Position numbers and translations under genes: made by a program. This document shows positions 44,743 through 51,915 of a DNA stretch of 64,000 nucleotides, piece after piece; position 1 is the stretch's first letter, and the number at the start of each line of letters is the position of its first letter. The notes under the pieces were generated by a model. That model worked only from the letters and a program-made list of their open reading frames with translations, did no database searches and was not told the origin of the DNA. The stretch comes from a phage: the sequence record PV730302.1. The stretch is one strand, 5' to 3'.

Positions 44743-45702
44743 TTATTTTTCGAAAGGACGAATTAAATGTTGGTTATCTTGGAAACGCTTGATGTAGTCG
44801 TTTTCACCTAAAGTCTTGTACATATTAACCACCGCTTGGTAGTTTTCCCAGGCGTACTCGCGGAACCAACCTGAAGTGATTGAGGTGCACACTTTCTCAA
44901 GAGCCATATAGAAACTTAATGATGGCGAAATATTAAAGTCATTAGGAACCTGTGAACGTTCTAGTGCCAGGACACAAGTTTCTTCATACACACCGGCCAA
45001 TTTAATAGCTTCAGGCAAAGCTTCAAACTTCTCACGAGAGGTCATGACTTCAGAACCATCCTTCATATAAAAGGTATATGCAGGGCGGCCTGCCAATGCT
45101 ACTGCTTCGTGGATGGAGTCATGGTCCAGCGTATAAATGGTATCATTAAAGAATGATGATTTGTTAACGTCTAATTTAGGGTGAGAATAGCTCAACGTTT
45201 CTTTTTGACGTTGCAGCATAATTTCCTGGAGTTCTTCGTTCAGGGTCACGCCTTTATTACGAAGGTATTTGATGTGGGACATAGTTTTCAAGAAGAACGG
45301 ATTATTCTTAAGGAAACGATGAGAGGTTTTGATAGCCAGACAGATATCAGGGGTTGCCCAATAGAAACCAGTAAGACGGTCCTTTTTAATATGATTTTCA
45401 GCATATTTCAGGAGACGATAGCTTGAAGTGAAATCTTCGTCTTGAAGCTCACCGGTAATTTCTCGTACGTTAGTCAGAGCACGAACGATATAAGCTTCAA
45501 AATAGGTTTCTTTACCATTATGCATACATTTGAAAGCCTGGACATCAGGATTGTCAACGTGTACATGGGCACCAAACATCCGAGCTTTAAAGTGATTCCA
45601 TGAGCCTTGGTCGGCAATGAAATCCCAATCAGAATTTTCGATATGCTTACTTTCAATCAGACCAGCGTGGTGCAGTGCACGAGAACCAATAACTAACATC
45701 AT
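44743..45702 (-). CDS. hypothetical protein (319 aa), possible nucleotidyltransferase-fold
   Basis: N-terminal IGSRALHHAGLIESKHIENSDWDF resembles a GS...DxD motif with a long spacer; weak. Confidence 0.5.
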   Translation of the reverse strand: MMLVIGSRALHHAGLIESKHIENSDWDFIADQGSWNHFKARMFGAHVHVDNPDVQAFKCMHNGKETYFEAYIVRALTNVREITGELQDEDFTSSYRLLKYAENHIKKDRLTGFYWATPDICLAIKTSHRFLKNNPFFLKTMSHIKYLRNKGVTLNEELQEIMLQRQKETLSYSHPKLDVNKSSFFNDTIYTLDHDSIHEAVALAGRPAYTFYMKDGSEVMTSREKFEALPEAIKLAGVYEETCVLALERSQVPNDFNISPSLSFYMALEKVCTSITSGWFREYAWENYQAVVNMYKTLGENDYIKRFQDNQHLIRPFEK

Positions 45703-45715
45703 AATATTTTCCTCA

Positions 45716-45883
45716 TTAGTAGAGACGAGTTACTTCATATTTACCTAGTTCAGATTTTTTTGCTTCAATACGCGTGGCGGCGAGATTAGCGGCCTCTAGT
45801 GAAGAAAATTGAACCACTTGTGAAGTATTCTGCCTTACGCCACCTTGTGGGTGAGTAACAAAAACAATAAGAACATTATACAT
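45716..45883 (-). CDS. small hypothetical protein (55 aa)
   Basis: Start at ATG 45883 with GAGGAAAA SD. Confidence 0.4.
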   Translation of the reverse strand: MYNVLIVFVTHPQGGVRQNTSQVVQFSSLEAANLAATRIEAKKSELGKYEVTRLY

Positions 45884-45902
45884 AATATTTTCCTCAGATA
45901 AC

Positions 45903-46142
45903 TTAAATTTCGGCAACGTAAGTGTTATGCAATTCCCACATATCATCAGAATTGCTCTTAATGATAGGGATTATCTCATTAGAGATTTCTTCAGCATAAG
46001 GGTCATTGATACAGTGGGCATCTTCAAAACGAACACCGTAATCAGACTTCTTATAGGCAAAGCCATAAATCTTTTTAAACTTGGCACGGGTAATGCGTAC
46101 CGGTTCATTAGACTTATCAGACAACGGAGAGTAATACCACAT
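45903..46142 (-). CDS. hypothetical protein (79 aa)
   Basis: ORF with SD GAGGAG. Confidence 0.45.
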   Translation of the reverse strand: MWYYSPLSDKSNEPVRITRAKFKKIYGFAYKKSDYGVRFEDAHCINDPYAEEISNEIIPIIKSNSDDMWELHNTYVAEI

Positions 46143-46185
46143 ATGTTCTCCTCATGTTTGTGTAGGGTAATAGTAACACGTATTT

Positions 46186-46515
46186 TTAGAGTTGTACATC
46201 ACTTCTGCAATATTCTAAAAATAATTTATCGTTGTCTACCGTATCCCAACGACGCCAAGATGGATTCCAGACCAAAGCGTTGTCACCACAATCATTGAGC
46301 TTAAAATGGTCGTAGTACATAGCTATACGTCTAGTTTCGTCACCAGAGAACCCCAGTATAGGCTCGCCGTGGGTGTGATACATATGATGGTGCATTGAGA
46401 GGTCGCATTTGTAAAACATCTCACGTTTACCACGAACGAACAAGAAGGCTTGCCCATTCATATAGAATTCTTTATCTGTTTTCAAAAGATATTTGAATAC
46501 TGAATCTTTATGCAT
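46186..46515 (-). CDS. hypothetical His-rich protein (109 aa)
   Basis: Start at ATG 46515 with AGGAGG SD. Confidence 0.5.
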   Translation of the reverse strand: MHKDSVFKYLLKTDKEFYMNGQAFLFVRGKREMFYKCDLSMHHHMYHTHGEPILGFSGDETRRIAMYYDHFKLNDCGDNALVWNPSWRRWDTVDNDKLFLEYCRSDVQL

Positions 46516-46545
46516 AAGTCCTCCTACCACATCCATGTGGTTAAA

Positions 46546-46773
46546 TTATTTTCCTAACGAAACACGAGTAGGTTTTTTACCAAAATAGTCTTCGTAAGAA
46601 CCATCTAAACGGCCTGCTTTAGACCGACAATACGAATCATACTTTTTGTAATAAGTCATCTCGGTATTATAACGTGGGTGTCTATCAGCCATAATAATAC
46701 TTAACGGCCAACCTTTGGCATAATCGCGAAGACCATTTATTTTACGAATGTATCTTTTCTTTAATTTTAGCAT
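46546..46773 (-). CDS. hypothetical basic protein (75 aa)
   Basis: ORF. Confidence 0.4.
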   Translation of the reverse strand: MLKLKKRYIRKINGLRDYAKGWPLSIIMADRHPRYNTEMTYYKKYDSYCRSKAGRLDGSYEDYFGKKPTRVSLGK

Positions 46774-46991
46774 GAGCTCGGATACCAGATTTTACCATCG
46801 GCCTGAGCAACGAAGGTGCGACCAGCTTCTTCACCATAACAAGAGCTATTCAGCCAATCTTCGAGACGAACTTCACCGTCATAATCATCGAGCTCAACAC
46901 CGAAATCCTGGGCAGAAGCCATATCTTTTACTTTCTTATACAGTGCAGCCAGTTCAAGAGCAGCTTTTTCTAATTCATTAATATCAGACAT
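46767..46991 (-). CDS. tandem-paralog family member 4 (74 aa, C-terminal ...WYPSSC)
   Basis: Start at ATG 46991 with AAGGAAAT SD; shares acidic helical N-terminus, Y-x-P block and terminal SS-x-C with the three upstream paralogs. Confidence 0.5.
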   Translation of the reverse strand: MSDINELEKAALELAALYKKVKDMASAQDFGVELDDYDGEVRLEDWLNSSCYGEEAGRTFVAQADGKIWYPSSC

Positions 46992-47001
46992 TTTTATTTC
47001 C

Positions 47002-47214
47002 TTAGCAAGACATAGAAGAAGTAAACCAGAAACCATCACCATCAGGAATGCCGTAATCATCACGGACCCATTCATAATCATCATATTCCGGGTTCTTTGG
47101 AGAAATGTATTGTCCACGACCAGAAACATGGAACTCTTCACCCGTTTCGTCAGCCACAGACTGGCCTTTACGTACTAATTCACGGATTTGGTTTTCAATT
47201 TCATCAATAGTCAT
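47002..47214 (-). CDS. tandem-paralog family member 3 (70 aa, C-terminal ...TSSMSC)
   Basis: Same architecture as neighbours. Confidence 0.5.
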   Translation of the reverse strand: MTIDEIENQIRELVRKGQSVADETGEEFHVSGRGQYISPKNPEYDDYEWVRDDYGIPDGDGFWFTSSMSC

Positions 47215-47223
47215 TTTATTTCC

Positions 47224-47505
47224 TTAACATTCAGAAGAAGAGGACACCCAACCACCATTTTCTAGGCTGGTAGTGTAATCATGTTGGTTTACAATAGCGT
47301 ACTGAGCTTCACCGTATTCTTCCCAGTGGGCAAGGTCGGCTTTCAAGGCGCCAGGAGAATAATAGTCACCGCCCATACCGCGAGCAGGGTATATATTAAA
47401 ATGAGTCTCATATTTGTTTGCAATTTCCTCGGCACGACGAATAGCTTTATGGATATCATTTACTGCTTCAGCCAATTCTTTATTTTTATGGTAATCATTC
47501 ATCAT
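47224..47505 (-). CDS. tandem-paralog family member 2 (93 aa, C-terminal ...WVSSSSEC)
   Basis: Same architecture as neighbours. Confidence 0.5.
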   Translation of the reverse strand: MMNDYHKNKELAEAVNDIHKAIRRAEEIANKYETHFNIYPARGMGGDYYSPGALKADLAHWEEYGEAQYAIVNQHDYTTSLENGGWVSSSSEC

Positions 47506-47514
47506 AGCGTTTCC

Positions 47515-47805
47515 TTAGCACATTGCCGAAGAGGAGATCCAAGCACCAACTGTAACGACGCCATTTTCAACTTCACCACCGTTGTTTTCAATTTCATCTT
47601 TAAACCACTGGGAGCATTCATAACCGACAGGATAATATGTACGGCCTGAACCATAATCACCGGTACCGAATTGGATACCATACTTATCGGCAATAGCTTC
47701 ACATTCATGTTCGATGGTATTCACTTTATTCAGAAGAGCATAGATAGCCTTTTCTGCAGATTTCTCGTCATTGTGTTCCGGGATTTCAATTTCAATTTTA
47801 TTCAT
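47515..47805 (-). CDS. tandem-paralog family member 1 (96 aa, C-terminal ...WISSSAMC)
   Basis: Same architecture as neighbours; ATG overlaps the upstream stop. Confidence 0.5.
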   Translation of the reverse strand: MNKIEIEIPEHNDEKSAEKAIYALLNKVNTIEHECEAIADKYGIQFGTGDYGSGRTYYPVGYECSQWFKDEIENNGGEVENGVVTVGAWISSSAMC

Positions 47806-49326: not shown

Positions 49327-49398
49327 AGTATTTCCTTCAGTTGGTTAAGATTTATAATCCATGAGGACATTATACCCTGTCCTCTGAGGGTTGTAAAC
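49327..49398 (-). promoter_or_regulatory. early promoter (GTTTAC-18-TATAAT)
   Basis: Minus-strand GTTTACAACCCTCAGAGGACAGGGTATAAT. Confidence 0.6.
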
Positions 49399-51758: not shown

Positions 51759-51833
51759 TGGTATCCCGCCCTGGGATCGAACCAGGACCGCAAACTTAGA
51801 AGGATCGTATGCTATCCATTACACCAGCGGGAC
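51759..51833 (-). tRNA. tRNA-Arg (anticodon TCT), CCA encoded
   Basis: Manual cloverleaf: acceptor GTCCCGC/GCGGGAT, D-arm GTGT-AATGGATA-GCAT, anticodon loop CTTCTAA, T-arm CCTGG-TTCGATC-CCAGG. Confidence 0.8.
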
Positions 51834-51838
51834 ATAGT

Positions 51839-51915
51839 TGGTGACCCGGACCAGATTTGAACTGGTAACCTTTCCCTTATGAGGGGACTGCTTCTAACCA
51901 TTGAGCTACAGGGCC
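51839..51915 (-). tRNA. tRNA with anticodon CAT (Ile2/Met type), CCA encoded
   Basis: Manual cloverleaf: acceptor GGCCCTG/CCGGGTC (one mismatch), anticodon loop CTCATAA, T-arm ACCAG-TTCAAAT-CTGGT; three stem mismatches in total. Confidence 0.65.

Follow-up and report, generated by a model that had tools for sequence, protein, structure and literature searches.

A tandem array of small phage proteins with a conserved Ser-Ser and Cys tail is linked to a predicted nucleotidyltransferase

What is the role of a Ser-rich tail, closed by a cysteine, that is shared by the products of four adjacent small phage genes? The window analyzed here, a stretch of 64,000 nucleotides (PV730302.1), belongs to a Dhakavirus genome (Straboviridae, T4-like). 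Its closest relative is Escherichia phage QL01, and the region around the array is 98% identical to QL01 and other Dhakavirus genomes. The counterpart interval in QL01 lies between e/nudE and e.6, in a plastic early region upstream of denV, the internal head protein (IP) genes and the tRNA cluster, and every gene in this region is on the minus strand. The only tRNA genes in the window, tRNA-Arg(TCT) and tRNA-Met(CAT), are found at 51759-51915 (-), about 4 kb upstream of the array. The four consecutive ORFs described in the initial annotation are present with the lengths given there and coincide with four annotated hypothetical CDS in QL01. They are called paralogs A to D here, and their positions are collected in Table 1 together with those of associated features.

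Table 1. Positions of the array genes, their tails and associated features
Feature	Position	Strand	Description
Paralog A	47515..47805	-	96 aa, net charge -10, tail GAWISSSAMC; phrog_899 E 2.8e-23
Paralog B	47224..47505	-	93 aa, net charge -7, tail GGWVSSSSEC; phrog_899 E 2.4e-20
Paralog C	47002..47214	-	70 aa, net charge -10, tail GFWFTSSMSC; phrog_899 E 1.3e-13
Paralog D	46767..46991	-	74 aa, net charge -9, tail KIWYPSSC; phrog_899 E 4.3e-10
Tail W-x-S-S-S-x-x-C of A	47518..47541	-	Translation; equivalents at 47227-47250 (B), 47005-47028 (C) and 46770-46787 (D)
Four unrelated small ORFs	45716..46773	-	75, 116, 79 and 76 aa; phrog_7065, 9796, 3723 and 20278; between array and nucleotidyltransferase
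DUF7277 + DUF7275 protein	44743..45702	-	319 aa, phrog_2141, predicted pol-beta-type nucleotidyltransferase
Band_7/SPFH genes	L007 6809-7639; L088 4114-4953; L090 3468-4304		Upstream of family array
NAD-salvage genes	Acinetobacter phage AB2I3, L100 4815-7454; Vibrio phage K406, L099 210-3163

The array is tightly packed. Spacers of 9, 9 and 10 nt separate A from B, B from C and C from D, the ATG of A overlaps the stop codon of the upstream gene (ATGA) and the stop codon of D overlaps the ATG of the next gene. The AAGGA Shine-Dalgarno sequence before each start is made by a TAA stop followed by GGAAA. Mechanical ORF calling extends D to 124 aa from a GTG at 47141 (46767-47141, -), overlapping paralog C; the gene in fact begins with the ATG at 46991, where a separate Shine-Dalgarno sequence precedes it. 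Over-extended starts similar to that of D are also seen in some metagenomic gene calls (P0027, P0028 and P0009). All four proteins are acidic (pI 4.2-5.0, net charge -7 to -10), and of the window's 317 six-frame stop-to-stop ORFs with 60 aa or more they are the only ones to end in W-x(1-3)-SS-x(0-2)-C. No further family copies were found elsewhere in the window or in the T4 interval from e to the tRNA genes.

The sequence TGY-TAA-GGAAA is common to three of the junctions, and the shared C-terminus might accordingly be a repeated junction of stop codon and Shine-Dalgarno sequence read in frame, in ORFs that are not genes. This explanation, which the initial annotation named as its own refutation, is rejected. 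The Ser codons of D are AGC-TCA and not TCT-TCT, and no GGAAA junction follows D. The HMM matches of the ORFs span their full length, the AlphaFold2 (AF2) model is confident and 431 homologous clusters bear the same tail on unrelated DNA. Comparison with Dhakavirus orthologs gave dN/dS values of 0.04-0.36 (0.04-0.30 for paralog A), far under 1, which indicates that the array is under purifying selection. No long DNA repeat was found beneath the tails.

The four genes are true, ancient paralogs of one large, uncharacterized and phage-restricted family, PHROG 899. All of them match the profile HMM of this family, whose annotated function is unknown, with alignments that fall in its C-terminal portion; searches of Pfam, NCBIfam, PADLOC and PDB sequences with A-D returned only sub-threshold noise. 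Membership in this group of uncharacterized T4-like phage proteins (PHROG 899, RB69ORF139c-type) is direct in sequence and, through BFVD matches, also in fold. The family name is a label to which no function, partner or description of a motif has been attached. The other paralogs are 21%-30% identical to A, and seven residues (F46, W67, G77, W89, S92, S93 and C96) are invariant in all four, in line with the paralogy proposed in the initial annotation. The tryptophan that it placed before the tail in three of the proteins is in fact present in all four, since the tail of C reads W-F-T-S-S-M-S-C and D has its Trp at -5. The aromatic Y-(Y)-x-P block holds apart from D, which is without it.

Each of the types A, B, C and D has orthologs at 40%-70% identity in other enterobacterial T4-like genera. 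The duplications are therefore old, and recent local duplication is ruled out by the same orthologs. Local expansion by diversifying duplication, as first suggested, does not agree with this depth of divergence or with the dN/dS values. The gene order is A-B-C-D in Dhakavirus and A-B-D-C in other enterobacterial T4-like genera, and D-type members recur beside the nucleotidyltransferase in other phages. Copy number varies among related phages, as the initial annotation had proposed to examine. A fifth copy (65 aa, ending WVSSSYEC, SGTSWVSSSYEC) lies between B and C in phage 04086 and several other Dhakaviruses, and the number of copies per phage elsewhere is 1-6. In Escherichia phage 04086 the fifth copy, at 1225-1422 of the locus examined (L002; its equivalent in the window would lie between 47214 and 47224), is unannotated, and an opposite-strand ORF has been called there instead. 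The type A copy of RB69, RB69ORF139c (P0043, 71 aa), ends in SQWYEK without the W-x-SSS-x-x-C tail and is probably a truncated or decaying copy.

An exhaustive profile search collected 431 representative clusters, nearly all of 70-110 aa, with the match reaching the last residue. The sole long match, P0154 (1367 aa), is a false positive driven by repeats. Family members have about 70-100 aa, an alpha/beta structure and an acidic character (mean net charge -7.8), and are defined by their C-terminal tail. The full signature runs from an N-terminal helix (..AE.IADE.G..F.F) through an A-Y-G-M-G-G-T-Y-Y-P block and an acidic linker to the terminal G-W-x-S-S-S-x-x-C-COOH. In 179 homologs, Trp is found at -7 in 171, Ser at -4 in 173, Ser at -3 in 169 and Cys at 0 in 178, and the cysteine is the very last residue in 172. 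The conserved terminal cysteine claimed from the window alone is thus borne out, and as a functionally constrained residue, by a tail kept in more than 170 distant homologs. Paralogs A, B and C fit the family rule exactly (70-110 aa, Trp at -7, Ser at -4 and -3, Cys last), and ARGMGGDYYSP in B corresponds to the YGMGG block. Paralog D, the most divergent of the four, is without this block and has the shorter W-x-x-S-S-C variant of the tail, which is shared by 5 of 178 homologs. In the AF2 model of A (pLDDT 91.5), a long N-terminal helix is packed on a small beta-sheet; the Trp is in the last strand and SSSxxC forms a short terminal turn.

The tail unit can also occur inside the protein. The W..SS motif is present two or three times in 41 members, often as internal W-x-SS-x-C-Y-G-E/D units, and D itself has an internal WLNSSC-YG at 46839-46856 in addition to the terminal WYPSSC. 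Internally repeated units were seen in P0073, P0109, P0166, P0097 and others, for example WESSSEGWESSSEGWVSSSSQC and WNSSGCEWESSGCY...GWNSSSAHC. Because some members repeat it internally, the W-x-SS-x-C unit seems to act as a module for which a free carboxyl end is not strictly needed.

IP genes of the T4 type lie in the same genome region as the array, and an assignment of the array proteins to this group was considered and rejected. Their N-termini (MNKIEIEIPE, MMNDYHKNKE, MTIDEIENQI and MSDINELEKA) appear, on reading, unlike the capsid-targeting sequence, which is MKTYQEFIAE-like and cleaved by the prohead protease.

A gene on the same strand, 1.06 kb downstream of D, encodes the DUF7277 + DUF7275 protein, and this linkage, which the initial annotation did not mention, changes what its "effector or binding module" is likely to mean. 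The linkage was examined both ways, from the DUF7275 gene to the family and from family members to the DUF7275 gene. At 70 of 80 IMG/VR loci, picked for the DUF7275 gene, at least one family HMM match was present; every match is same-strand and, with two exceptions, upstream within about 3.5 kb. Of the 10 HMM-negative loci, five carry an ORF with the tail that escaped the HMM, four, all from one lineage, are family-free and one could be placed in neither group. In the reverse direction, a DUF7275 gene was found downstream of all five distant family members looked up, with differing flanks (DnaB/RecA, Band_7 and PNKP/Rnl1). Two distant metagenomic members are directly upstream of a protein of about 300 aa with DUF7277 and DUF7275, and one of these contigs has a four-gene array. 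Outside the T4-like phages, two to five tandem members were directly upstream in six of six full-length cases examined (Otagovirus, Flaumdravirus, Phapecoctavirus, Pseudomonas phage SYP, a 366-kb Erwinia phage and an Acinetobacter phage). The recurrence of the pairing outside T4-like phages makes the linkage independent of T4-type synteny. Among 185,579 species genomes only five loci were found, all of them on MAG contigs and all with upstream family members. No family members were found beside four DUF7275 matches that were either remote or partial (Streptomyces, Gordonia, KVP40 and Vibrio K406). The small-protein array and the nucleotidyltransferase form a conserved two-component module, and in unrelated groups of phages the two are almost always linked.

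The final gene of the array directly abuts the nucleotidyltransferase gene in most other phages, and the four small ORFs between them in the window are a lineage-specific insertion. The interruption of the pair by these ORFs agrees with an explanation in which there is no coupling at all: the small proteins would be independent early effectors, acting for example as acidic DNA or protein mimics or as thiol/metal-binding proteins, and would travel with the enzyme as a mobile cassette. In favor of this, they are small, acidic and predicted to be early-transcribed, and reside in a hyperplastic region rich in accessory genes. We nevertheless regard this explanation as quite improbable.

The expression signals were surveyed across the same gene string. 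The best candidate for a sigma-70-like, early-type promoter is at 49369..49397 (-), upstream of the string, with TTTACA-17-TATAAT (11/12). No minus-strand terminator-like site was found from 50000 to 44500, that is, down to the nucleotidyltransferase, and no late-promoter TATAAATA was found between 42486 and 57372. This arrangement fits a single early polycistronic unit of array and nucleotidyltransferase, where the promoter calls are consensus matches only.

The partner is predicted to be a nucleotidyltransferase of the pol-beta type that belongs structurally with MenT, AbiEii and ANT. Its best structural match is MenT1, and ANT(2'') and LnuA are among the top matches; profile searches against PDB and Pfam gave no AbiEii and no HD domain. 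DUF7275, with a D-H-D...H pattern, might be HD-like. The GS...DxD motif is intact, and G6-S7...D25-x-D27 is invariant across 41 homologs together with many His, Asp, Glu and Cys residues of the C-terminal domain. The enzyme is widespread (over 2000 clusters; 734 phage records in GenBank), and no fusion of the small domain to the nucleotidyltransferase was seen in 120 homologs. At one locus (L071) its gene appears to be split into two ORFs. In one lineage (L067, L069 and L082) the enzyme is found without family members, and there D193, Y209, V271 and W279 are changed, residues that elsewhere are conserved to 95% or more. These changes, in a single lineage, hint at a possible place of partner binding.

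The structural match suggests a comparison with bacterial toxin-antitoxin systems. MenT toxins lengthen tRNA 3' ends (PMC10435456; PMC11375011), and the MenT1 antitoxin is a small protein, encoded immediately upstream, that acts through its N-terminal helix (PMC11375011). The phage proteins might likewise be antitoxin-like regulators that bind a MenT-like enzyme and restrain or time it, as MenA1 does MenT1. The true substrate would then be a nucleic acid, the 3' ends of host tRNA or some other, with the tail plugging or sensing the active site and the acidic body mimicking nucleic acid. The position of the family genes, upstream of the nucleotidyltransferase and often abutting it, agrees with this, as do the strongly acidic character and the conserved N-terminal helix. 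The enzyme is found without the small proteins and never the reverse, as would be expected of pure regulators. However, up to six diverged paralogs for a single-copy enzyme would be unusual, a lytic phage has no obvious need to neutralize a host-directed toxin and the strict invariance of Ser-Ser and the terminal Cys points to chemistry, beyond docking alone. Compared with MenAT1 and AbiE (DUF1814 toxins MenT1-4 and AbiEii; antitoxins MenA1 and AbiEi), the phage pair has no sequence-level match to either component, and the array proteins are not antitoxins of the MenA1 or AbiEi type (wHTH, COG5340). The phage module is carried by virulent phages and not by bacterial chromosomes, has 1-6 diverged small genes where MenAT1/AbiE has one, and its enzyme has a large, highly conserved extra helical domain (DUF7275). 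The invariant W-x-SSS-x-x-C tail has no MenA counterpart. Regulation of this kind is the main rival to the acceptor reading considered next, and is possible though not likely.

We tentatively favor, with somewhat less than even confidence, a module of two early components in which the exposed tail interacts with the nucleotidyltransferase and most likely serves as a modification acceptor. A single enzyme accompanied by diverged small genes with a fixed Ser/Cys end is the usual signature of an enzyme and its substrates, and enzymes of this fold modify hydroxyl groups; for both reasons the tail is preferred as an acceptor. The array proteins would be made with the early genes, from a same-strand string that includes the nucleotidyltransferase, and the exposed tail would dock into the enzyme. 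Either a hydroxyl of the invariant Ser-Ser or the thiol of the terminal Cys would then most probably accept an NMP or a phosphate. Several diverged small proteins would in this way be modified by one enzyme, and would subsequently act through their variable bodies on different host targets in takeover or counter-defense.

MntA-HepT, GlnE/GlnD and ANT/Lnu are pol-beta-fold enzymes that attach NMP to hydroxyl groups of small molecules or partner proteins. They offer a chemical precedent for modification of the Ser-Ser tail, by a likeness of fold only, although the acceptor here would be Ser or Cys and not Tyr. The resemblance to the HEPN-MNT systems (type VII TA) is limited, since the enzyme here has 319 aa and an extra domain compared with about 130 aa for a minimal nucleotidyltransferase. 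The small-protein alignments contain no conserved Arg or His that could supply the HEPN Rx4-6H motif.

A more specific proposal is that the DUF7277/DUF7275 enzyme covalently modifies the W-x-S-S-S-x-x-Cys tail and that the products constitute a new class of "tail-activated" phage small proteins; taken in this form, it is rather unlikely. In one route Ser would be O-nucleotidylylated or phosphorylated, and after elimination the terminal Cys might attack and close a lanthionine-like ring; another would lead to a protein-nucleotide conjugate. Such proteins, supplied by multi-gene arrays, would be used early against host targets or defense systems. Analogous to RiPP precursor arrays such as those of the lanthipeptide LanA, tandem small paralogs adjoin the gene of one enzyme. 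Such arrays, like CaaX or sortase-type signals, also share a fixed terminal motif, which here is Ser-rich with Cys at its end. Ser and Cys in the phage tails are 3-5 residues apart, a spacing that resembles that of lanthionine rings. In contrast to RiPPs, the array proteins are folded domains of 70-100 aa and not leader-core peptides, conservation is concentrated at the C-terminus whereas a RiPP core is usually variable, and the class of enzyme differs. Among nine neighboring ORFs, Pfam identified no Lan-type dehydratase/cyclase or radical-SAM maturase, and the PHROGs of the neighbors are all of unknown function.

The combination of a variable linker and body with an invariant tail, in multi-copy arrays beside a single conserved enzyme, would also suit targeting adaptors. 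The body of each protein would bind a host protein and the common tail would recruit the enzyme, which would nucleotidylylate that target. This scheme is purely inferential, and such systems are not documented for MenT- or ANT-like enzymes; it is considered improbable.

Several other genes occur near the module. A gene for a Band_7/SPFH protein is just upstream of the array in three distant metagenomic T4-like contigs, and NAD-salvage genes (PRPP synthetase and nicotinamide/nicotinate phosphoribosyltransferase) adjoin the DUF7275 gene in two phages (Table 1). Sir2-like genes are 3-4 kb or less from the DUF7275 gene in vB_EcoM_01 and KVP40, and MazG-like pyrophosphatases are close by in several DUF7275 loci. 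The NAD-salvage, Sir2 and MazG neighbors may reflect a shared counter-defense neighborhood, or coincidence.

The module is common. It occurs in therapeutic-type coliphages, in Klebsiella, Acinetobacter, Aeromonas and Pseudomonas phages and in jumbo phages, and lies among the early accessory genes, where host-takeover and counter-defense functions concentrate. Should the tail be a site of modification or docking for a MenT-like enzyme, the module would be a phage-borne relative of the bacterial anti-phage nucleotidyltransferase toxin systems, with a partner of a new kind, and the terminal W-x-SSS-x-x-C would provide a simple sequence rule for finding the substrates or regulators of the enzyme. 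That the genes belong to an existing PHROG without a function is already known. A literature search on phrog_899, on DUF7275/DUF7277 and on phage nucleotidyltransferases with anti-defense returned nothing relevant, and the definition of the motif, the age and structure of the array and its linkage to a MenT/ANT-like enzyme appear to be undescribed in the sources searched.

Some GenBank genomes name the small genes or the nucleotidyltransferase "tail completion protein," "prohead assembly scaffold protein" or "major capsid protein." These structural-protein names are unsupported by the present analysis and look like annotation errors. JGI labels a 101-aa family member (P0240) "ATP-dependent exoDNAse (exonuclease V) alpha subunit," almost certainly in error.
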